A model generated the notes under the pieces. The model was not told the origin of the DNA. It saw only the letters and a program-made list of their open reading frames with translations, and searched no databases. Of a DNA stretch of 64,000 nucleotides, positions 15,661 to 61,886 are shown piece by piece. The stretch's first letter is position 1; each line of letters opens with the position of its first letter. Source of the stretch: a virus (taxonomy: Duplodnaviria > Caudoviricetes). The DNA is taken from the IMG/VR virus record IMGVR_UViG_3300010338_000470; one strand, given 5' to 3'. Made by a program: the position numbers and the translations under genes.

Positions 15661-16086
15661 TTAGAGATTCCACGGACTAGTGCCAGCCTCCCGGTAGAGG
15701 TCAAGGGCAACTAAAGTGTTCACGTCGGGATTAGCCCACTGGGTGGGGCTGAATCCCAGCTTATGGAACCTCCCTGAATGTGTCCCCAGTAGAAGCTGCC
15801 AGCAGCCGCGTGCCGAGCTTCCCTTGTTGGCGGCACTGGGGCTGTTGCGCGACTCGCGCCAGACGATCCCCCTAGCCCAAGAACGAGAGGCAGCAGGCCA
15901 GTGCCTGTCAATGGCCTCATAGCAATCCCGGCTTGAGCCTGGACGCGACTGGATGTGCGTCACCACCGCATCTTGCTGGTGGGGCGCTAGCGTTTGGAAA
16001 AGCTGGACCTCGTGAGGCGTGCAGGCCGACCCAAGTGCGACAGTTAGGAAGATGAACAACGTCAAAATGGCTGTTTTGATACTCAT
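15661..16086 (-). CDS. Secreted/lipoprotein lytic transglycosylase (SLT-like)
   Basis: Signal peptide ending LGSAC; RESR..P.A.N..SSARGCWQ; PW C-terminus. Confidence 0.8.
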   Translation of the reverse strand: MSIKTAILTLFIFLTVALGSACTPHEVQLFQTLAPHQQDAVVTHIQSRPGSSRDCYEAIDRHWPAASRSWARGIVWRESRNSPSAANKGSSARGCWQLLLGTHSGRFHKLGFSPTQWANPDVNTLVALDLYREAGTSPWNL

Positions 16087-16133
16087 GAAGAGTATTGTAA
16101 CAGCTCTGTCTTCGTTTTGAAACGAAACTGTAA

Positions 16134-18376: not shown

Positions 18377-19030
18377 CTAGCCAACACGTGGAACGGAGGC
18401 ATAGCGGTCGAGAATGGCTTGCGCCCACTCAACCAGATCTTCGACCCGCTGGCCCCGCTGGTGCGACGTGCACCACAGCTCCAGATTCTCAAGTCGATTG
18501 TCATCTCGAAGTCCATTCTTGTGATGGACGTCTTCTTCAGGCAAAAGGCACCGACCAAGGTGGCGGGCCATCACGTAGCGGTGCTCGAATACCAAGTTGT
18601 GAGGCCCTGTTGCCATGTCGATGAATGGGTCGTCCGGAATCAACCTGCGTCGGATGTACCCTTGACTGGTCTTATGGGTGCCACCCTTCCAGTTCCAGCT
18701 CTTTTCACCTTGGTACTTGCCCGCCTCGTATCCGCCTCGTCGTCGCTGGACGCCATGATTCTCCAGGACGTACCAAATTGACTTCGGGTTGGCGTCTAGG
18801 CGCTCACCGATTGAAGCTAGGGTTTCGCCAGCCTCGTAGGCATCGCAAATGTCGAGCTGCTGCGCCAGCGAGGGCTTAAAGGGTGGTCGTGTCACTCTGT
18901 GAGGCGACAGGCCAGGGATTCTCTTGCACGCCTTACAGTAGAACTGAAGCCCATCCTTGGATGCCGCCCTGCGGTGGAACTCTGAACGGGGCTTCGTCTC
19001 CCCACACTTCCTACAGCTCTTGGACTCCAT
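18377..19030 (-). CDS. HNH endonuclease (Zn finger + HTH + HNH_3)
   Basis: EHRYVMARHLGR.L...EDVHHKNGLRDDNRLENL. Confidence 0.9.
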   Translation of the reverse strand: MESKSCRKCGETKPRSEFHRRAASKDGLQFYCKACKRIPGLSPHRVTRPPFKPSLAQQLDICDAYEAGETLASIGERLDANPKSIWYVLENHGVQRRRGGYEAGKYQGEKSWNWKGGTHKTSQGYIRRRLIPDDPFIDMATGPHNLVFEHRYVMARHLGRCLLPEEDVHHKNGLRDDNRLENLELWCTSHQRGQRVEDLVEWAQAILDRYASVPRVG

Positions 19031-19478
19031 TCTTGGAGTCTAGCACAAGATCGGGCAAGCAGATCCCGCGCAGGTGATCCATCTCGTGCTGGATGATCCT
19101 TGCCTTCCAGCCCGTGGCCCCCTCCTGGTGTCTAACGCCTTCAACGTCAGTATAGGTCCACGCTATCTCCGTAGACCTCTCCACTGAGAACTCCTTGCCT
19201 GGAACAGAAAGACATCCCTCCCCCGCCCTAACAGTCGAGTTGGCAGAATAAAGGATCTCGGGATTCAAGGCAAGAAAGGACTCCCCGGAATCGTGAAGAT
19301 AGAAGGCCCTAATGGGCATCCCAACCTGTGGAGCGGCCACAGCAACGCCACCGAGGACGAGACAGGCAAACCGAAGGTCAAAGGCAAGCTTTTCTACATC
19401 GACAGCCTCAACATCTACTGGACTGGACTTCTCGCTCAGTATCCGATTCGGATACTTGACCACCCTCAGGACCTTCAC
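19011..19478 (-). CDS. def: Peptide deformylase
   Basis: GVAVAAPQVG, EGCLSVP, QHEMDHLRG. Confidence 0.93.
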   Translation of the reverse strand: MKVLRVVKYPNRILSEKSSPVDVEAVDVEKLAFDLRFACLVLGGVAVAAPQVGMPIRAFYLHDSGESFLALNPEILYSANSTVRAGEGCLSVPGKEFSVERSTEIAWTYTDVEGVRHQEGATGWKARIIQHEMDHLRGICLPDLVLDSKNGVQEL

Positions 19479-23602: not shown

Positions 23603-23901
23603 ATCTTCTCCAAAAGAATCAACAGAAACTGGATCTCAGCATCTGAACACTCCAACACATTCACGAGCCTAGCGAACACGTTCGCTGCCGGGAAGCGAGT
23701 CGGAGTGATCGTGATATCGAAATCACGCATGCTCCCATCCTCTAGAAGGAAGCTCAAGGAAACATCCGTTGGATACGGCTCCTCCGTTCCAGCCCATCTC
23801 TCGTTGATGTACGTCTCGCTGAATCCAAGGAAAGCCTTCTGAATCACCTCGGCAACATCACTACTGAACAGTTCCCCGTCGTGCGATAACTTGTTTCCCA
23901 T
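23599..23901 (-). CDS. Hypothetical protein
   Basis: Leaderless -10 upstream; overlaps the next gene. Confidence 0.65.
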   Translation of the reverse strand: MGNKLSHDGELFSSDVAEVIQKAFLGFSETYINERWAGTEEPYPTDVSLSFLLEDGSMRDFDITITPTRFPAANVFARLVNVLECSDAEIQFLLILLEKM

Positions 23902-23983
23902 GCCGCCAACGTAGCACCCACTTCTACGTATAGGGCAGCCCTCCCCATCCTTGAGGTCGAGAGTGGTGCTACAGAACGTTCAG

Positions 23984-35779: not shown

Positions 35780-36262
35780 ATGCTCAGCGACAAGGACATC
35801 AAGTACATGAAGTGGTCACTCCAGGGGGCCGACCTCTTCTCCACCTGCTCGAAGGCCCAGTACCTCGCCATCATCCTTGACACCCACGGAAGGGTTGTCG
35901 GCACAGGGTACAACGGTGTGCCTTCAGGTATGAAACACTGCGTTGACGGTGGATGCCCCCGAGTCGTCAACAACGTCCCATCTGGAACCCCATACGACTA
36001 CGGCCCAGGGCTCTGCTACGCCATCCACGCTGAAGCTAACGCTATCCTTCACTCAGATCGAACAGCGAGACTGGACGGAACCATCTACGTTGGTGGGGTT
36101 CCGTGTTTCGGATGTGCCAAGCAGATCGCTAGCTCTGGGCTAGGTAGGCTCGTCTACCTCCAGAACGAGGCCTCAAGGACGGACGCTTCTCAATCCTTGG
36201 AGCTGATAGCTTCCGTGGGGATCGAAGTAGCTGGGGTGGACCCCACCCTCCTCAAAGAATAA
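35780..36262 (+). CDS. dCMP deaminase
   Basis: GTGYNG, HAEANA, PCFGC. Confidence 0.93.
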   Translation: MLSDKDIKYMKWSLQGADLFSTCSKAQYLAIILDTHGRVVGTGYNGVPSGMKHCVDGGCPRVVNNVPSGTPYDYGPGLCYAIHAEANAILHSDRTARLDGTIYVGGVPCFGCAKQIASSGLGRLVYLQNEASRTDASQSLELIASVGIEVAGVDPTLLKE

Positions 36263-39200
36263 GTTCGACCCGTTTGCGTTGCTTGCCCTTGATCCCAGTA
36301 AGGACCTCGAAGGCCCCCGATATGGCGTCACAGTTGTGTACGACTAACCCGTTGGCCGTGTATTCGTTCACGTCAGCGACTCTGAGATTGTAAACTGTTT
36401 GCGTTGGGGCGGCTTCAACTGAAATAACAGGCCATACAACTCCAGCTTCAACACGCTTGCCGTCCTCTTGTCCTCTCGCCTCGAATTCAACGCGTGGATG
36501 TAGCGGTTTAGACGGCCATCTCGAACTCAATTCTTCAACTAGATCTACAGCCTGAGAACGTGAAATCCTCACAGTCCATTGGGGTCTGCCTTGATATTCA
36601 ACCCTGCCCAAAGTGGGGTTGTATCCAAGATGGAAAAGGATCTCTCGAACCTGATAGATCAATTGCCTGTTGGCAAGACTCATCCCGAGGTCTCCACGCT
36701 CATCAATGTGCCCATCTTCGAGGAAAATTTCAAGAACAAGCTGTCTGAGTAGGTTGTCGCCCCAGTTGAACCATTCCGATGGGATGCTCTTGTTTTTGCC
36801 TACTCCAACTCTATTTTTCAAAGAAGATGGTGTGAATTCTCTGAGATCAGTAGTAGCCGCACCGCTTTCGGTTCGACTCGGCCAGGAATTACACAAGCCT
36901 CGCTGCTCGCCCGACTCGACCATCTCTTGAACTGTTTCCCATCCGACCTCTTCCCAATACCTTTGAAGCCTCGGACGCTCTGCATGCTTACGATATTCAC
37001 GCTTCTTTGCAAAAGTCAGTAGCGGATGATTTGGTGTTACAACGAGTGCCTCGTTTCCTCCGACTCGGAGCTTCACTGTTGGGGCTTCCCTTTCAAAAGT
37101 TTCGAGAACTTCCTTGAATCCAAACCTTGTCCACACCATATCACCAACGCTGACATCTTGAATTTCCACATACCCACGATCGGTACGCACTAGCGTCCCG
37201 GCACCAAAACACTGGTCATCGTGGATGGAGGACTTCTTAGAAGCTAGCGGATCGAAAGCCATCACCTCGTCCAAGAAGGCCGTCACCCAATCCCCTCTCA
37301 CCAAGAAGATTTCCTTGCGCTTGGCCTTGGCTGCCCAGTTGTTCACCCTCTTGCCCTTGTCGGCAGTGATGGAGTTGCCGTCAAAGTCGAAGCCGAGAAG
37401 AACGTTCCTAGCGTAGTGCGATATCTGAGAGAGGCCAGCCTGACCTGGGTCCTTTTCCATCCTAATCTTGACGTGGTTGCCGTCTTCCCATGCTGTTTGC
37501 AGGACTCGACGTTCGACATCAGCAGGCCCAGCCCTAAAACGCCTCATGTCCAAAATGAACATGTAGCCATCCACGATAGCCACCTTGGCTCCAGCGGTCC
37601 AGTCAGGGTCGGGGTTGGAATCGGATGGGGCTGAGCCTGCCAAATCCCAATACCTGACGCAGTTCATGAAAGCTTCAGCCGGGACATCCTCGGGGGCGAT
37701 AATCGGGAAGTCGTCACGGTCAAAGAGGTTGCCTGTCTCCTCCGCGTACCAGTCACCGAACTTCAGCCTGGCTCTATCCACGCTCGAAAGACGGTCAAGG
37801 GCCTCCCCGTATGACTCGATGTCAACGTAAGGATTCTCCTCGAACCCGCAAGGGATGAAAAGCCTCTTACTGTCTTTGTGCTTACCTTCTTCAATGAAGT
37901 AACGTCTCACCCAGTTTGGAGCAGGGTTGGTGGCAGACCTTGCCCTCAAGGGTACCTTAGCCAAGGGGGACCCAGAAGCAGCAGAGGGGCGACGGATACG
38001 AGAGATCAGATACCTGTAGTGGTTCTCTCTGATCTCGGTTAACTCATCGAACCCACAGTTTGCAGAAACAATCCCACCTTTGATGATATAGTGGGAACAT
38101 GAATCAACTGTCAGGTCCCGAGTATCCACCTCACCCACTGGGGCCATTTCACAAACAGCGGAATACACGTCCTGAAGTGACGAGGTACAAATTTCCGACG
38201 TATAGGGGTGGACATACGATATGCCGCCCATCGGGATACATAGCGGAATACTGCCCCGACCACCCTCATTGCAACAAAATTGGTCAGGTTGCCCAGCATC
38301 GCCTCGTGATGGAGGGAGGCCTCGGTCGTCTGCTCTTGCCGGGAGAAATTGTCCACCATCGAAACCGGGACAAGAAGGACAACCGTCTAAGCAATCTCTC
38401 CCTTGAGACGCCTCAGACTCACGCCAAGGAGCACTATCCTGAGTCCTTGATGGCGGGGGTGTATGGGAAGGCTGACCTGAATGAAGGGCAGGTCCGTACA
38501 GCGCTAGCGGGGCGAACGACACGAGAAGCCGCTGACTTGTTAGGAGTGCATCCTCAGACGTTGAGAAATAGGTTCGATCACTTGCTTCAGAAACGACGCA
38601 GCCCTGGTGAACCGCTGCCCCTTGAGTTGCAATGGAAGCTGCGGGAGATGGCCCTTGATCCCGGCATGAGCCAATCTCGTGCTTGCCGTGAACTTGGAGT
38701 GTCGCCTGGAACCCTGAAGACGTGGTACCGCTCTCTAGGTTTGTCTTGGCAGCGAGCGAAGTCGGGGCCACCCAGCACCCGTCGGTAGACAGCATGCGAT
38801 GCCCTTCACCGACCACTACTGAGGAACCGTTAGGAGTGGTGACCTTCCAAGCTGGCTTCATTCCGGGGCTATGGGTTCTCGTCACCTTCCTAGCCCCTTG
38901 AAGTGTCTGAACCTCGTCACCCACTTCAATATCTTCAATGGGACGCCACGACCCGTCCGCCATGAGGACAGGGGTCGACTTCTCGACGCAATACTGAACC
39001 TCCATGCCCTTGTACCTGAGGTGGTCATCAGGGCCATCCAGATATCCGAAAGAGAGCGTGGCTCCCGACGGGAACACAGCGGTATTCGACTGCTTCAACC
39101 AGCGAACTTCTGGGTACTCGGAAAGCCACTCCCTGGCCCTATCCATGATGGCTCCGGGGAGGGCCAGGTCAGCGAAGGTGTTACGGAAGATGATGGCAGC

Positions 39201-41675
39201 GTAACCTGGAACGTCGCAATTGTGCGTCGGAACCATATTCTCTCCAACAAGGAAGAGGTGGTCTTCTGAGCCAACAGTGAGGCACTGAACAAGCCTGGAT
39301 TCGTTCAGTCTTTCGACCTTGGAAACGATCCATCGCTTCTGCATTCGGGTGTTGGTCCGCTTTCGCTCCACGCTCTGCTTTTGCTTGGCCTTCTTTCTGG
39401 TCAGCCTGAACACATACTCGTCGGCCGGGAAGGAGACTAGCCATCCGAACTTTTGCTCTCCGGATGGAGTCGTGTGCCATTGCTTGGAACGAGTAGCATG
39501 CCACCCAAAGGAGCTGACTAGCTCTACTACGGCTTCCACCAGCAATCGGTTAGTGCTGAAGAATATTGGAGTACCCCAATGAGCATCCGTCGTCCCGTCG
39601 GCATCCATAAGGCCTTGCAGGAGAGCCAACCTCTGCCCCTTCGAGGCCCGAAAGTAGGCTTGAGGTACATGCTTGTCTATCAGTACGCCAGCCCTTTTCA
39701 GATTAGTTCTAAGCCCAAGGTCATGCCAGTGATGCTCTCCATCGCGTGCTATCTCGTACCCTACTCCCCTGAGGGCTTCCTCTACCTCTCTGTCAATGCC
39801 AACCGCACCCCCGTCACCCCATGACCTATCTCCAAGCCAGACCACAAGCCAGACCCCAAGCAAATATGGGTCCACTGGAAGTTCGATTTCAGGCAGATCA
39901 AGAGGCTTGGAGTCCAAGATGCTCCATTGTGCTGCGGGCTTACGCCCGCGGGACGTCCTCTGGGTACGGAACATTTCAGCAGTAGACACTGTTCTCGTGG
40001 GGAGGTGTTCTCCCCCGTCTGGCGACATCCTGTCGGCTAATGTCTCTGCTGCCCAAAGGTGCTTACCATCGGCAACTATAGAGTATCCTTCATTGAAGTA
40101 CATCTCGTAGAGATCAGAGGACCACTCAGGCTGCGTTTTGGCCAGGACGGGCACCGGAACACCGTTCTGGTCAAACACCATGTCACCTACTTCAAGCTTC
40201 CCTATGGTGGACCAGCCTTCCGGGGTAGGGACGGGGGTGTCCACGTCCAGCGGGTACTGCAACGCTGCCATTAAAAGGGCGTCCGAGTTGTGGGTTACGA
40301 TGAAGGAGCGTCCGATGCGGAAAAGGCCGCGAGGGTTGGCGACCTGGATGCACTGTGTTAGCTGGGGCTCAGCTTCCTCGATGGATTCGATAGGGCGATA
40401 CTCGGTGCGATTCATCTTTGAGTCGAAGTCGCATGCCAACCAGCGATCCCTCTTGAACGGCAGCCTGAAGAAGCACTCGGGACACTGTGAGACTTGAAAG
40501 CGCCAGGCCTTACCTTCAAACTCGGGGTCTTGATTCTTCGTCTTCTTGAACTGGAAGACGGAGGGCTTGAATCCCATGGACCAGAACAAGGACCAAAGCT
40601 GCTCGCACATGTCTTCGGTGGCGAGACATATCTCCATGCGCCCTCTTTCAGCGTCGATGTAGCCGTCCGTATCGAAGAATCCCGAGATGAACGACTTCTT
40701 GTCGTCGTGCGAGGTGAGGAAGATCCAGTCTGGGATTCGTTTGCCAGCGAGGAAGTTTTCGGCCCTCAAGTGCCTCTTCAAGCTGACGCCATTGCTGTCG
40801 GTGAGGGCCAGTCCGAACATGTCCTGCCTGCCTTCCCGCTCCATGACGGTAGCGACTCTGACATCCCATCCATCTTTCTGGAGTTCAGGGATTAGGTCGT
40901 CAGCATAGGACTCACTTGTCCAAACATACCCGTTATCGATTCCCCCATCTCCCAACCAAACTCCGAGTGTGTAAGGGGGAATCTCTGACTTCCACTCTCC
41001 GGCCCCATTTAGGGGTCCACCATTCGGAATGGAGAGGCGCTTACGTTCAGACTCTTGAAGCTCGATGACTTCTTCAGTTGTAAGCGTTGTTGTGTAGTCC
41101 CAAATAGAGGGGCGCACATAGGTCTCACGAGCTTCCTGAGCGCGCTTGGAGTTATGGAGGGCAGCCGCCTCGGCAGTGCCCTTAGCTCGCCCGTCTGTAG
41201 CCTCTAGACGCTCCTTCTCGGACCTACCCCTCAGCGCTCTCTTGGCGCGCCTAGCGGCCTTCCAGTGAGGGTCCGTGCGCTGGTAGGCCCCCCTCTGGTT
41301 CTCGTTGGCGACATTCCAGCGGTGGGTTCTCCCTGCGATCACATCCTCCCCGCCACTAGAGACGTTGTAACACTTATCAGCGAATACTTCGGACTTGGCC
41401 AGGACTTGGGTCGGCTCTCCGTCCTGGTCGAAGACATAATCTCCCACCTTCAGTGAGCCGATAGTCTTCCATCCCTCTGTCGTCAGAATAGCTGTGGAAA
41501 CTCTCAGATTTTTGCCACCACTTGCCGCTCCACCGAATAGAACTTCTAGTGCGTCGGTGCGCAAGAAGGCTTTCTGCTTAGGGTGTGGCTCGTGGGGTGA
41601 GTAAAGGGGTGGCTTGGGTTCCAGGAAGTCGCGGACTTTCTGCCAGTCAACATCCTTGGGGGTCTCGTCAGGCAT
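36252..41675 (-). CDS. terL: Terminase large subunit with four inteins; ~450 aa after splicing
   Basis: GGAASGGK|S Walker A, Y|CGFDE Walker B, SATNP, RYWDLA, DWTAG, HDDQ|CDA. Confidence 0.95.
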   Translation of the reverse strand: MPDETPKDVDWQKVRDFLEPKPPLYSPHEPHPKQKAFLRTDALEVLFGGAASGGKNLRVSTAILTTEGWKTIGSLKVGDYVFDQDGEPTQVLAKSEVFADKCYNVSSGGEDVIAGRTHRWNVANENQRGAYQRTDPHWKAARRAKRALRGRSEKERLEATDGRAKGTAEAAALHNSKRAQEARETYVRPSIWDYTTTLTTEEVIELQESERKRLSIPNGGPLNGAGEWKSEIPPYTLGVWLGDGGIDNGYVWTSESYADDLIPELQKDGWDVRVATVMEREGRQDMFGLALTDSNGVSLKRHLRAENFLAGKRIPDWIFLTSHDDKKSFISGFFDTDGYIDAERGRMEICLATEDMCEQLWSLFWSMGFKPSVFQFKKTKNQDPEFEGKAWRFQVSQCPECFFRLPFKRDRWLACDFDSKMNRTEYRPIESIEEAEPQLTQCIQVANPRGLFRIGRSFIVTHNSDALLMAALQYPLDVDTPVPTPEGWSTIGKLEVGDMVFDQNGVPVPVLAKTQPEWSSDLYEMYFNEGYSIVADGKHLWAAETLADRMSPDGGEHLPTRTVSTAEMFRTQRTSRGRKPAAQWSILDSKPLDLPEIELPVDPYLLGVWLVVWLGDRSWGDGGAVGIDREVEEALRGVGYEIARDGEHHWHDLGLRTNLKRAGVLIDKHVPQAYFRASKGQRLALLQGLMDADGTTDAHWGTPIFFSTNRLLVEAVVELVSSFGWHATRSKQWHTTPSGEQKFGWLVSFPADEYVFRLTRKKAKQKQSVERKRTNTRMQKRWIVSKVERLNESRLVQCLTVGSEDHLFLVGENMVPTHNCDVPGYAAIIFRNTFADLALPGAIMDRAREWLSEYPEVRWLKQSNTAVFPSGATLSFGYLDGPDDHLRYKGMEVQYCVEKSTPVLMADGSWRPIEDIEVGDEVQTLQGARKVTRTHSPGMKPAWKVTTPNGSSVVVGEGHRMLSTDGCWVAPTSLAAKTNLESGTTSSGFQATLQVHGKHEIGSCRDQGPSPAASIATQGAAVHQGCVVSEASDRTYFSTSEDALLTSQRLLVSFAPLALYGPALHSGQPSHTPPPSRTQDSAPWRESEASQGRDCLDGCPSCPGFDGGQFLPARADDRGLPPSRGDAGQPDQFCCNEGGRGSIPLCIPMGGISYVHPYTSEICTSSLQDVYSAVCEMAPVGEVDTRDLTVDSCSHYIIKGGIVSANCGFDELTEIRENHYRYLISRIRRPSAASGSPLAKVPLRARSATNPAPNWVRRYFIEEGKHKDSKRLFIPCGFEENPYVDIESYGEALDRLSSVDRARLKFGDWYAEETGNLFDRDDFPIIAPEDVPAEAFMNCVRYWDLAGSAPSDSNPDPDWTAGAKVAIVDGYMFILDMRRFRAGPADVERRVLQTAWEDGNHVKIRMEKDPGQAGLSQISHYARNVLLGFDFDGNSITADKGKRVNNWAAKAKRKEIFLVRGDWVTAFLDEVMAFDPLASKKSSIHDDQCFGAGTLVRTDRGYVEIQDVSVGDMVWTRFGFKEVLETFEREAPTVKLRVGGNEALVVTPNHPLLTFAKKREYRKHAERPRLQRYWEEVGWETVQEMVESGEQRGLCNSWPSRTESGAATTDLREFTPSSLKNRVGVGKNKSIPSEWFNWGDNLLRQLVLEIFLEDGHIDERGDLGMSLANRQLIYQVREILFHLGYNPTLGRVEYQGRPQWTVRISRSQAVDLVEELSSRWPSKPLHPRVEFEARGQEDGKRVEAGVVWPVISVEAAPTQTVYNLRVADVNEYTANGLVVHNCDAISGAFEVLTGIKGKQRKRVELIL
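36333..37211 (-). mobile_element. TerL intein 4 (293 aa), partial LAGLIDADG
   Basis: DDQ|CFGAGTLV..VTPNHP..LEIFLEDG..VYNLRV..ANGLVVHN|C. Confidence 0.9.
38084..38092 (+). promoter_or_regulatory. Extended -10 for the leaderless antisense HNH
   Basis: TGa-TATAGT-6 nt-ATG, the same architecture as other genes in this window. Confidence 0.65.
38099..38788 (+). CDS. HNH endonuclease (HNH_3 + two HTH) nested antisense inside TerL intein 3
   Basis: GYIAEYCPDHP..QHRLVMEGGLGRLLLPGEIVHHRNRDKKDNRLSNL; TTREAADLLGVHPQTL; SQSRACRELGVSPGTL. Confidence 0.9.
   Translation: MNQLSGPEYPPHPLGPFHKQRNTRPEVTRYKFPTYRGGHTICRPSGYIAEYCPDHPHCNKIGQVAQHRLVMEGGLGRLLLPGEIVHHRNRDKKDNRLSNLSLETPQTHAKEHYPESLMAGVYGKADLNEGQVRTALAGRTTREAADLLGVHPQTLRNRFDHLLQKRRSPGEPLPLELQWKLREMALDPGMSQSRACRELGVSPGTLKTWYRSLGLSWQRAKSGPPSTRR
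39219..40253 (-). mobile_element. TerL intein 2: class 3-like, Pro1, LAGLIDADG (345 aa)
   Basis: QY|PLDVDTP..KHLW..LQGLMDADG..VQCLTV..PTHN|C. Confidence 0.9.
40287..41510 (-). mobile_element. TerL intein 1: class 3-like, Asn1, LAGLIDADG (408 aa)
   Basis: GGK|NLRVST..THRW..LGVWLGDG..ISGFFDTDG..TQCIQV..VTHN|S. Confidence 0.9.
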
Positions 41676-47680: not shown

Positions 47681-47709
47681 TTGACACCTGAAGATTCGCC
47701 TGATACAGT
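47681..47709 (+). promoter_or_regulatory. Promoter of the leaderless DUF932 gene
   Basis: TTGACA-17 bp-TACAGT-7 nt-ATG. Confidence 0.8.
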
Positions 47710-47716
47710 GTACGTC

Positions 47717-48709
47717 ATGTCACATGACCTGCAAATCCAAAACGGTAAGGCTAGCTTCGCATACAACCAGCGCGTCGGGGATCCCTGGCACCGGCTGGGA
47801 GTCCCGGTGGATGGCAACATGACCATCCCTCAGGCCCTCCAGGCCTCCAGGGCTGACTTCACTGTCGAGAAGCTGCCCCTCTTGGCCAGGGAACCCTCTG
47901 GGCTCGTGTATGTTCCTCAGCGGGTCGCCACGGTGGCCACCTACACGGACGGAACAAAGGCTTCCCTCGGTGTAGTCGGAGAGGGCTATCAGGTAGTCCA
48001 GAACGAGGCAGCTCTAGAGGTTGCCTACTCGATCGTCGGGGCATCCAACGGGGATGCTCAGGTCGACACGATTGGGGTTCTCAGCGGTGGGGCTCAGCTC
48101 TTCTCCTACCTCGCTCTTGATGGTCTCGTCATCGACCCCACCGGGATCAACGATGAGATCGACCGAGGGCTGGTCATCTACTGGAGTCACGATGGGTCAG
48201 TTGCCATGACCTACTTGTTCTCCGCCATCCGTGTGGTCTGCCGCAACACCCTCTCCTTGGCTCTAAGCGGAGCGAAGAATGTCTTCAGGGCCAAGCACAC
48301 GGCTTCCGTGGAGAAGCGGCTAGAGGGCGCTCAGGCCGTCCTGGGGGTATCCACACAGTGGGCCTCGGCCTTCTCCAAGAAGGCTGAGGAGCTTCTCAGG
48401 GTCTCCTACACGGAAGACAAGTTCCAGAAACTGCTCACCCAGGTCTTCCCTGAGCCTCACGGTGCGACAGATCGCCAAAAGAGCAACGTCAAGGCAGTCA
48501 GGACCCAGGTGCGTGGAATCTTCGCCAACGAGAGGAACTCCAAGAACTACGGTTCGAACGGGTGGAGCATGTACAACTCCATTGTCGAATACCTCGACCA
48601 CGAACGGGACTCCTCGCAGGAAGACCTGTGGAAGGCAACCATGACCCCCGGTAGCTGGGTGGACAAGAAGAAGATCGAGGCCGCTTCCAGGATTCTGGAA
48701 CTCGCTTAG
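47717..48709 (+). CDS. DUF932 (LGT_TIGR03299-like) protein
   Basis: PWHRLG, YQVVQN, SHDGS, RVVCRNTL, KHT, WSMYNSIVEYLDH. Confidence 0.88.
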   Translation: MSHDLQIQNGKASFAYNQRVGDPWHRLGVPVDGNMTIPQALQASRADFTVEKLPLLAREPSGLVYVPQRVATVATYTDGTKASLGVVGEGYQVVQNEAALEVAYSIVGASNGDAQVDTIGVLSGGAQLFSYLALDGLVIDPTGINDEIDRGLVIYWSHDGSVAMTYLFSAIRVVCRNTLSLALSGAKNVFRAKHTASVEKRLEGAQAVLGVSTQWASAFSKKAEELLRVSYTEDKFQKLLTQVFPEPHGATDRQKSNVKAVRTQVRGIFANERNSKNYGSNGWSMYNSIVEYLDHERDSSQEDLWKATMTPGSWVDKKKIEAASRILELA

Positions 48710-60279: not shown

Positions 60280-60746
60280 GAGAACACAACCCCCTGAAAC
60301 TCGACATCAATGTAGGTCGTTAGGGCTGAGGATGCAGACTCTACCTGACCGCAAGCAATGTACTCATTGTCATTCAGTGGCACAAAGCAGTCCACTACAA
60401 GTCGAGATCGTGCTGGTATGAGAAGTTCGCTACCTATGGTTGCCCTAAAGGTATTAGGTGACTCAACTATGGCTGAATAGAAATTGTAGCTGGTGGTTAT
60501 GGTGGTGTTGCTGACTATCAGCTTAGTAATGGCAACTTGAACACCGGCTGGCTTAGCATACCTGGAGACATAAGAGCTAGTTGTGCTGTTGATCATCCTG
60601 TAAGGGCGACCATTGTAGAGTTGGATAGGTTTCCCCACCTCGTCCACGTACTTCTTCGTGGCGGCATCCTGATCAGCTGTAGGGTTGAGGACATTGGAGA
60701 CCTTCTGGCTCCCCATATCCAGTTCAACTAGATTTTTACGCGCCAT
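60276..60746 (-). CDS. Putative structural protein
   Basis: PTADQDAATKKYVD fibre motif. Confidence 0.65.
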   Translation of the reverse strand: MARKNLVELDMGSQKVSNVLNPTADQDAATKKYVDEVGKPIQLYNGRPYRMINSTTSSYVSRYAKPAGVQVAITKLIVSNTTITTSYNFYSAIVESPNTFRATIGSELLIPARSRLVVDCFVPLNDNEYIACGQVESASSALTTYIDVEFQGVVFS

Positions 60747-60758
60747 GGCTACATTCTA

Positions 60759-61886
60759 TCAGCCAACCACGACACACCTGTATTTACTGCTAGCCGGGGC
60801 GGTAGCGAAGACAAGGGACACCTGGGTAGTGCTCGTCTTCTGAATTTCAGGATACACTTCAGCGTAGGGAGAAGAGTTATCGTGAACGGACACGGTAACG
60901 TCCCTTGAGCCAAGCCCGTGAGTCACGGTGATGGTAGTAGAGGTGCCGTCCCCAACATTGGTTGCGTACTTCTTAGTGAACGTCGAGGCGAGCTTGGCAT
61001 CGGAAATTCCCCCGTCCTTGACTCTCAAGGCATCAGCGTTGATCTCGATGGTCGAGTTGTCGACGTTGACACTGAAGGTGTTTCCAGTGAGATCAAGGCC
61101 GTTGCCAGCAACATAGGACCCAGCCCCAGCGAACTGAGCGTAAGTCAAGGAGGTCGAACCAACGGTAATCGGGGCGTTAGTGGTCAACACCCAAGCTGTA
61201 TCAGCATTGACCGTACCCTCCTCGATGAAAACAGCCATGTTGGGTAGTTCGGCTGCCGTGTCAGCATCGGAAGCTCTAGTGGGTGCCCCGGAAGCGTTGA
61301 CAACATAAAGACCGTTCTCGGAGGCTGTACCCTGGTTCTTGATGAGGATACGGTCGCCCGTAGCTAGGGTCACACCGTCAACGGAATCCCCATTCTCGAA
61401 ACTTGAAGCCAAAGTCCCTGCTGCGGTCGTGGCTACCCTGGCAGCGTTCTTCCAAGACGTGCCATTTATGGCTGAATCCACATACCCCTTGGTGGCTCCG
61501 TCGGTGGAAGCTGTAGGGGTGGCGAGGTTTGTGATCTTCTGAGAGTTGAGGTTCAGGCTTCCAGTGGGGGCTGGGAGGGTATGCAAGGCCCCCACAACAA
61601 AGTCAACGGAAGGAACTCCGTCGTTGTACGTTAAGGTGATGCCGGTTTGTGTACCGGCCGTCAGCATTGTTGCTATGAAGTCTTCGATTTGCTCCTGGGT
61701 GAACCCAGAACTGCCCGAAGCAGCGACCCATGATGTCCCGTCCCAAAAGTAGAGCTTGCTAGTGGATGTATCGTAGTAGATCTGACCAGTAGCAGGGCTG
61801 CTAGGGGCAGAGGCAAGGTTCTGAACTCTGGCATTCAGAATCTCGTTCTTGTTTAGGTCAATGCCTGTGAGGTATTGGCGTGCCAT
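60759..61886 (-). CDS. Virion fibre/decoration protein
   Basis: PTASTDGATKGYVD, GDRILIKNQ..ENGLY, TVTHGLG. Confidence 0.75.
   Translation of the reverse strand: MARQYLTGIDLNKNEILNARVQNLASAPSSPATGQIYYDTSTSKLYFWDGTSWVAASGSSGFTQEQIEDFIATMLTAGTQTGITLTYNDGVPSVDFVVGALHTLPAPTGSLNLNSQKITNLATPTASTDGATKGYVDSAINGTSWKNAARVATTAAGTLASSFENGDSVDGVTLATGDRILIKNQGTASENGLYVVNASGAPTRASDADTAAELPNMAVFIEEGTVNADTAWVLTTNAPITVGSTSLTYAQFAGAGSYVAGNGLDLTGNTFSVNVDNSTIEINADALRVKDGGISDAKLASTFTKKYATNVGDGTSTTITVTHGLGSRDVTVSVHDNSSPYAEVYPEIQKTSTTQVSLVFATAPASSKYRCVVVG

Follow-up and report, generated by a model that had tools for sequence, protein, structure and literature searches.

The third intein in the large terminase subunit gene (terL) of a virus recorded in IMG/VR (IMGVR_UViG_3300010338_000470; Duplodnaviria, Caudoviricetes) carries, on its opposite strand, a complete gene for a nuclease of the HNH type. 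The DNA analysed is a stretch of 64,000 nucleotides from this virus, hereafter called the window, and the features of the locus are collected in Table 1. An earlier note, made from the sequence alone, had drawn attention to the arrangement. It described an intein with intact splicing regions and no in-frame LAGLIDADG endonuclease, and a separate plus-strand open reading frame (ORF) of 229 residues with an HNH_3 core and two helix-turn-helix (HTH) motifs. We found that the intein boundaries given there are exact. The family search that the note had proposed for both strands returned HNH_3 on the plus strand and Hint on the minus strand, and Pfam and PHROGs agreed on the domains of the nuclease ORF.

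Table 1. Positions of the features of the terL locus in the window; a slash marks a splice junction.
Feature	Position	Strand	Description
Antisense homing-endonuclease gene (predicted)	38099-38788	+	229 aa: N-terminal extension, HNH_3 core and two HTH domains
HNH_3 catalytic core	38294-38425	+	aa 66-109; Pfam HNH_3; invariant Q66 H67 R68, H86 H87, N95, N99, H108
Two three-helix HTH DNA-binding domains	38483-38737	+	aa ~129-163 and 175-213; Pfam HTH families at ~131-162 and 185-213; helices from the model
Intein 3	38058-38990	-	311 residues, class 1 (Cys1 ... Asn311/Cys+1), directly before Walker B (QY/CGFDE)
Intein N-terminal splicing domain	38730-38990	-	Residues 1-87 with blocks A and B; C1 and H64 invariant; pLDDT 92-98; Pfam Hom_end_hint/Vint/Hint
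Intein linker	38244-38729	-	Residues 88-249, the antisense reading of the HNH gene; stop-free, unconserved as protein, predicted disordered
Intein C-terminal splicing domain	38058-38243	-	Residues 250-311; pLDDT 80-97; block G ends GIVSAN
C-extein Cys+1 and Walker B (CGFDE)	38043-38057	-	Joined to 38991-39011 (KGMEVQY), forms the predicted homing site after intein removal
Extended -10-like element and start	38084-38101	+	TGATATAGT-GGGAAC-ATG; TGaTATAGT, 6 nt, ATG (leaderless layout)
terL	36252-41675	-	One open frame, 1807 codons/aa, four inteins inside; exteins match terminase large subunit families

Intein 3 runs from Cys1 (CVEKSTPVLMADGSW...; codon at 38990-38988) to the terminal Asn of ...GGIVSAN (38060-38058), and is followed by Cys+1 (38057-38055) and GFDE. 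Among 23 homologous inteins, C1, H64 of block B, D292 of block F and N311 are invariant, as is the HPY motif at residues 261-263 of the C-terminal splicing domain, while H300 and Y301 of block F are kept in at least 90%. The +1 residue is Cys in the window and Cys, Thr or Ser in the relatives. Pfam detected Hint-type domains alone in this frame (TerL residues 896-984) and no in-frame endonuclease, as the earlier note had it, and a PHROGs search of the intein 3 frame gave no family match. In an AlphaFold2 model built with the 23 homologues, residues 1-85 and 250-311 have block means of 80-98 for the predicted value of the local distance difference test (pLDDT), and residues 88-247 have values of ~40. 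When the model was compared with known structures using Foldseek, matches covering both halves were found to mini-inteins, namely NpuDnaB (target template-modelling score, TMt, 0.75), Mtu RecA (0.73-0.74) and Ssp DnaB (0.69). According to this model, intein 3 is a mini-intein-like Hint domain carrying a predicted disordered loop of ~160 residues. The middle of the intein had been described in the note as not protein-like. The predicted disorder and the lack of conservation at the protein level bear out this part of the description, and the length given for it, ~200 residues, has to be corrected to ~160.

The plus-strand ORF matches PF13392 (HNH_3) with 35.2 bits against a cut-off of 24.8, and PHROG HNH endonuclease families with E-values down to 1.9e-16. 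This gene can start at the ATG at 38099 alone, as its frame is closed upstream by a TGA (38084-38086) that belongs to the string TGATATAGT-GGGAAC-ATG. The nuclease residues H67, H86, H87, N95, N99, H108 and H112 are invariant among 31 sequences. A structural model of the protein, with a mean pLDDT of 87, places strands at residues 84-87 and 100-103 and a helix at 105-118, and contains two three-helix bundles; a Foldseek search with it returned nothing at E <= 0.001. The plus-strand ORF presumably encodes a homing-type HNH nuclease that would nick or cut the insert-free allele in a site-specific manner, and its mobility is suggested by the discordant divergence of element and extein described below.

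At its two ends the nuclease gene overlaps folded parts of the intein, with ~48 of its N-terminal codons lying over the C-terminal segment and ~20 of its C-terminal codons over the end of the N-domain. The HPYT motif (38205-38216, minus strand), invariant in the intein, lies opposite an RGG motif (38204-38212, plus strand) that is nearly invariant in the nuclease, and the two share bases. Both proteins seem to be constrained in this stretch. Since HPYT is also present in a related mini-intein (locus L072, see below), the motif belongs to the intein.

Homologous loci and selection on the two strands

Searches against 50,697 catalogued phage records gave no match to the region by blastn and, by tblastn with the nuclease, distant HNH cores and nothing closer; IMG/VR, scanned with the nuclease and the C-extein as single proteins, yielded no match. 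A collection of 5.8 billion proteins yielded ~60 full-length relatives of the nuclease with 35-52% identity, and a profile search of 1.84 billion representative proteins yielded 184 clusters (50% identity) at E <= 1e-30. A search for longer proteins containing intein 3 returned the window's own protein alone. In the first three genomic contexts, the nuclease lies opposite a terminase frame that is open throughout (ORFs of 813, 783 and 900 aa), with an intein at the identical ...QF/C ... N/CGFDE site. An alignment of the nuclease family was used to reach 60 further loci from metagenomes, IMG/VR and three metagenome-assembled genomes, and after removal of duplicates this nuclease-fetched sample comprised 29 loci, each with an intact nuclease ORF. 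Opposite every full-length relative having enough flanking DNA we found both the N-terminal and the C-terminal splicing regions of an intein. The intein phase is always the HNH frame + 1 and contains 0 stops, and the other two antisense phases contain 2-18.

A second sample was collected with the intein N-domain alone as query and is hence independent of the nuclease. In this sample, an intein C-end was detectable in 36 non-duplicate loci, and in all of them the frame stays open across the intein. A full antisense HNH gene is present in 33 of them, two (L091 and L112) carry a shortened one, and the remaining locus (L071/L072) is a mini-intein. The stop-free phase of the intein, part of the earlier note's observation that both strands are open, is found again in every homologous locus.

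Some of the sequences examined were set aside. The nuclease of L114 was considered as a pseudogene, a reading that we rejected when its apparent stop proved to be the natural terminator. Two further loci, L113 (494-2920) and L118 (1862-2869), are unrelated to the element. They encode long tail-like proteins that end in C[VP]..GTPILMA...HN, a few residues and a stop; their C-terminal Hint domain, fetched by similarity to the N-domain alone, is best classed as an autoprocessing or intein-like domain and not as an intein.

For the nuclease-fetched loci, synonymous codons were permuted within each nuclease gene, such that both the protein and its codon usage were kept. Shuffling introduced a mean of 3.5-15 stops into the intein phase (P(0) <= 0.0055 per locus), and the observed number was zero in 29 of 29 loci; for the HNH gene of the window the shuffle mean was 4.2 and P(0) was 0.0055. 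When 17 nucleases were aligned by codon, nucleotide differences amounted to 0.41, 0.38 and 0.61 at the first, second and third positions of the HNH codons, respectively. The HNH frame had an amino acid identity of 47.6%, the intein frame one of 25.7% and the non-coding frames one of 25-26%. The ratio of nonsynonymous to synonymous substitution rates (omega, NG86) in the HNH frame was 0.16-0.27 in closer pairs and 0.20-0.42 in the window's own pairs, the highest value, 0.42, coming from a single distant pair of which the window is a member. For the intein frame of this DNA, omega was 1.0-1.8. Together, these results support the view that the HNH frame is under purifying selection and that the intein frame across the HNH gene is merely kept stop-free. 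The earlier note had predicted this very outcome for a test of selection on the two frames, and purifying selection on the HNH frame also upholds its claim that the nuclease is a separate antisense gene. It had set against its own reading the case of homologues with a broken nuclease frame and a linker conserved as protein; although its strand labels were swapped there, the proposed test came out as predicted, with the HNH gene intact in 29 loci and the intein linker unconserved.

A free-standing member of the nuclease family, the one closest to the window's protein (54% identity), is encoded in L008 (721-1260) behind an unrelated gene on the same strand. Over the part available, it has stops in all three antisense frames, including 5 in the phase equivalent to that of the intein. 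Thus, the openness of the intein frame is not a property of the nuclease protein sequence.

As for the host gene, the C-extein of the window's TerL matches the terminase large subunit family phrog_979 at 8.6e-52, and about three-quarters of the TerL precursor is intein. In the window and in all relatives examined, the host frame is continuous and not split into two separately translated ORFs. Public gene calls break terL at the nuclease gene (L001, 4889-7414; L002, 5036-7713; L003, 4901-7651): in these three loci the C-terminal terminase part alone was called, and in L001 a spurious plus-strand ORF was also called over the N-terminal part. Terminases of metagenomic phages are thus mis-annotated as fragments. 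Two of the other inteins in the window's TerL begin without Cys or Ser (GGK/NLRV..THN/S and QY/PLDV..THN/C) and lie at Walker A, spaced just 11 residues apart; the fourth intein reads DDQ/CFGAG..VHN/C. Pfam detected in-frame LAGLIDADG_3 in three stretches of the protein.

Sequences upstream of the nuclease start codon

The earlier note had pointed to TGa-TATAGT, 6 nt and ATG, formed from intein codons, as a leaderless promoter layout used across this genome. We found the element in place: read on its complementary strand, TGATATAGT-GGGAAC-ATG corresponds to the intein codons TCA TGT TCC CAC TAT ATC ATC (S-C-S-H-Y-I-I). The layout was tested by custom patterns against shuffled sequences and is 8-13 times commoner than in the shuffles. 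The window contains 10 copies of TGNTANNNT-N6-ATG where 0.76 were expected (13-fold), and 6 of the N7 form where 0.79 were expected. Most matches to TGnTAnnnT-6/7 nt-ATG are ORF starts, the HNH start among them, which bears out the genome-wide use claimed in the note; further matches lie at 19028-19045, 23899-23916, 60744-60761, 16084-16102 and 47701-47719, on both strands. These counts suggest that the phage widely uses extended -10 promoters with leaderless mRNAs.

In the relatives, the HNH start lies 23-44 nt inside the C-terminal end of the intein in the closest clade, and up to 98 nt inside it in distant loci. Two arrangements were found. In one of them, a -10 box lies 6-9 nt before the start (TGcTATAAT, TGcTACGAT, gTGTACAAT or TGaTATAAT), and in the other a -10 box lies 21-33 nt upstream and/or an AGGAG-type Shine-Dalgarno sequence is present. 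Of the 29 loci, 15 have a near-consensus -10 no farther than 45 nt from the HNH start (p < 0.05 vs the same strand of terL). AGGAG stands 4-9 nt before the ATG in other loci.

The block G codons ATT-ATA-GCA (I-I-A) give, as their reverse complement, TGCTATAAT, the most frequent of the boxes. They occur even in genes whose exteins reach a GC content at third codon positions (GC3) of 0.80-0.93 and whose Ile codons (4-17 per gene) include no ATA. In most loci of the closest clade, GC3 falls to 0.23-0.45 over the final 22 codons of the intein, and in the loci with the TGcTATAAT box GC3 is 0.23-0.36 in these codons vs 0.39-0.81 in the intein N-domain. We read the codon choice at blocks F and G as a probable sign of selection on the DNA for a promoter.

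Mobility, proposed mechanism and alternatives

Identity between nucleases correlates with identity between splicing domains with a rho of 0.64, and identity of either one with that of the extein at 0.28-0.35. Pairs of loci may be strongly discordant, as in L009-L010 (HNH 63%, extein 28%) and L002-L007 (60% and 27%). All hosts are TerL, and their C-exteins start at one position of the terminase profile, with the exception of L018/L028, which start ~16 residues upstream; the insertion site is common to 24 loci. For nine C-exteins, Pfam returned nothing at 1e-3 and PHROGs returned terminase in every case. This pattern fits with movement of intein and nuclease as one unit between divergent terminases at the conserved Walker B sequence.

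Other loci may represent stages before or after such movement. L035 (2475-4210) is an intein-free terL that reads ...SAFQM/IGWDE..., with no Cys, Ser or Thr at the site, and next to the start of this terL lies a divergently oriented member of the nuclease family, cut by the contig end and 55% identical over residues 10-81. L072 (2501-2953; also L071) contains the related mini-intein of 151 residues at the terminase Walker B (..DLI/C...FINKN/CVDE), which keeps HPYT, has no antisense ORF and shows 3-7 stops in each antisense frame. The antisense nuclease of L091 (2501-3256; also L092) lacks the HH..N..N..H core and retains the HTH part and an open frame, and that of L112 (2501-3259) has the core and one HTH domain; both inteins are ~252 residues long, and the intein frame is open in both. 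L091 and L112 look like decay stages. L035, L008 and L072, considered together, fit with an origin in which a free-standing gene invaded a mini-intein.

Based on these observations, we consider it probable that the locus is a two-gene composite selfish element, made up of a class 1 TerL intein and an antisense HNH gene with its own signals in blocks F and G. Its transcription, its splicing, and the specificity and timing of its nuclease we infer from the sequences. In this element, the loop of the intein, the usual place of an in-frame endonuclease, holds a complete gene of the free-standing homing type on the opposite strand. TerL would be translated through the antisense of the HNH gene, with the ~160 residues forming a disordered loop between the Hint halves, and splicing would remove the whole insert and leave packaging unharmed, as the essential host gene and the frame kept open suggest. 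Synonymous codon choice in the HNH gene keeps the intein frame stop-free. The nuclease would be made from signals of its own within the codons of blocks F and G, in the window from the extended -10 as a leaderless mRNA and in relatives by means of the TGcTATAAT box in block G and/or a Shine-Dalgarno sequence. It would then nick or cut the intein-less terL alleles of co-infecting phages where Walker B is encoded, and intein and nuclease would be copied into these alleles by repair. An extension of this mechanism is more doubtful, though possible: the signals coded in blocks F and G might weld intein and nuclease together in a recombination-proof manner, the nuclease might be made early, before late terL, and antisense transcription into the 5' two-thirds of terL might damp or delay the terminase. 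If this extension were true, it would constitute a dual-coding solution not described for any intein.

Several points weigh against the composite element or its expression as proposed. Owing to their common descent, the loci do not count as 29 and 36 separate events, and a single origin may account for the constant antisense phase. The penultimate residue of block G, which bears on splicing efficiency, is not His (...GIVSAN in the window; A, S, Q, K, R or L in relatives); inteins without a penultimate His exist, so its absence leaves intein membership intact. The best Protein Data Bank (PDB) match of the nuclease model by Foldseek is I-HmuI (1u3e), with a probability of 0.92, but it is weak (E 0.03, 16% identity, TM 0.26-0.33), and no PDB sequence was matched when the nuclease family was used as a search profile. 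A scan of 37700-39300 for standard sigma-70 -35/-10 pairs found no site at the HNH start. Moreover, the -10-like boxes lie antisense to the codons for H-Y-I and I-I-A, residues conserved by the intein, so part of their conservation may be protein-derived, and part may come from the lower GC of the mobile element. These last points, along with the 14 of 29 loci that have no significant -10 within 45 nt of the start and a GC3 of the whole intein below that of its exteins, favour an alternative that we regard as unlikely, in which the anatomy is right, but the boxes are by-products of intein residues and lower GC, and the HNH gene is transcribed weakly or starting at another place, such as an antisense promoter lying farther downstream within terL. 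Such by-products would not explain why the codons chosen (ATT-ATA-GCA, TAT) are those that give TATAAT, yet are rare or absent elsewhere in the same genes, nor why GC3 in the TGcTATAAT loci is lower in the last 22 codons than in the intein N-domain. The box in the window also conforms to the layout over-represented at other ORF starts, and the loci devoid of a -10 mostly have the Shine-Dalgarno sequence instead.

The nuclease could also be expressed without being the homing enzyme of the intein, its site in terL being merely tolerated, and could serve as an aid to genome-end cleavage, as is the case in HK97-like phages, or as a weapon against competing phages. HNH genes beside terminase genes are common in phages (PMC3592412), and the family member adjacent to the intein-free terL of L035 would agree with such a role. 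We nevertheless hold it to be improbable. The architecture, HNH_3 followed by two HTH domains with I-HmuI as the closest structural match, is that of site-specific homing enzymes, and the nuclease co-varies with the splicing domain and not with the terminase. In addition, it is present in 35 of 36 relatives fetched with the intein, the same unit sits in terminases that are only ~25-30% identical, and forms expected from decay in a homing cycle exist, namely the core deletion of L091 and the mini-intein of L072. Long antisense ORFs are common in GC-rich DNA, which would allow the plus-strand ORF to be a chance or decayed frame without product; conversely, the linker could be a real in-frame intein domain of an unrecognised type. 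Both ideas retain next to no probability, and we consider them refuted by the invariant catalytic residues, the avoidance of stops, the frame identities and omega. A chance frame does not fit with a domain match above the Pfam cut-off, with the 184 clusters or with an HNH-frame omega of ~0.2, and a linker domain does not fit with conservation at the non-coding level, predicted disorder and the lack of a family match.

Comparison with known inteins and nucleases

Like the nuclease described here, I-HmuI and related phage HNH homing endonucleases carry DNA-binding helix-turn-helix modules behind an HNH core; unlike the present nuclease, I-HmuI is encoded by an intron. The composite element adds a third nuclease family to those found in an antisense or out-of-frame layout within inteins, and the HNH layout is widespread, occurring in dozens of uncultured phage lineages over a wide GC range. 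It is a natural case of dual coding in which selection appears to act on one strand for its protein and on the other for freedom from stops alone, with L008, L072 and L091 as natural controls and candidate stages of the homing cycle. These loci support the existing model that inteins gain nucleases when free-standing homing genes invade mini-inteins. The tolerance of the Hint domain for a predicted disordered loop of 160 residues may also serve intein engineering.

Nucleases in unusual positions have been described in other insertions. In the fractured genes of Dassa et al. 2009 (PMC2677866), a free-standing endonuclease gene lies between the halves of a split intein. The likeness consists of an endonuclease of the free-standing type inside the intein locus of a phage-like gene, and of a model that links free-standing nucleases, inteins and split inteins. 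There, however, the host gene is in two ORFs and requires trans-splicing, whereas here its frame is continuous in every locus examined. The ShiLan-type insertions, which lie in methylase genes of phages (Arsenault et al. 2025, PMC11855218), hide an HNH nuclease in another frame of an insertion that is open in the host frame. That nuclease is called out of frame, with start and stop inside the insertion, and an antisense or opposite-strand position is never mentioned; no splicing domain is detectable there, whereas an intact Hint domain flanks the nuclease gene here. Phillips et al. (bioRxiv 10.64898/2026.09.14.751524) describe a cyanobacterial dnaX intein with an out-of-frame LAGLIDADG nuclease. 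The two systems have in common overlapping frames, a dN/dS that is low for the nuclease and elevated for the intein over shared DNA, and the secondary invasion of a mini-intein as the origin favoured by those authors. In dnaX, the nuclease is a +2 ORF, shifted on the same strand, and it differs from ours in family, in host gene and in the organisms concerned.

The closest known systems are the non-canonical inteins of Gosselin, Arsenault and Gogarten (bioRxiv 10.1101/2025.01.02.630785), who report antisense LAGLIDADG and VSR-like nucleases in actinophage inteins, including inteins of TerL. That preprint credits antisense LAGLIDADG nucleases in Synechocystis DnaX and a Chloroflexus SpoVR-like protein to Gorbalenya 1998 and Gogarten 2002. 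The preprint lists HNH as an in-frame type alone. A search of the accessible literature for an antisense HNH gene inside an intein found none and returned the Gosselin preprint as its single paper; promoters are not discussed in the related papers cited here, and the word 'promoter' occurs 0 times in the preprint. The earlier note had left open whether the architecture was already reported. The antisense-nuclease layout itself is known, though rare, and what is new here is the HNH_3-HTH nuclease and the evidence for a promoter within a splicing motif. The inteins of Gosselin and colleagues share with ours a contiguous intein with a separate endonuclease ORF on the opposite strand between the splicing blocks, an open host frame, an in-frame region without recognisable structure, and the joint spread of intein and nuclease. 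A free-standing nuclease gene invading an intein is the origin proposed for them as well. They differ in that the nuclease of the present family is HNH_3 with two HTH domains and not LAGLIDADG or VSR-like, that this family comes from uncultured phages of varied GC and not from PhagesDB, and that comparative evidence for expression signals in blocks F and G and a quantified avoidance of stops are available here.

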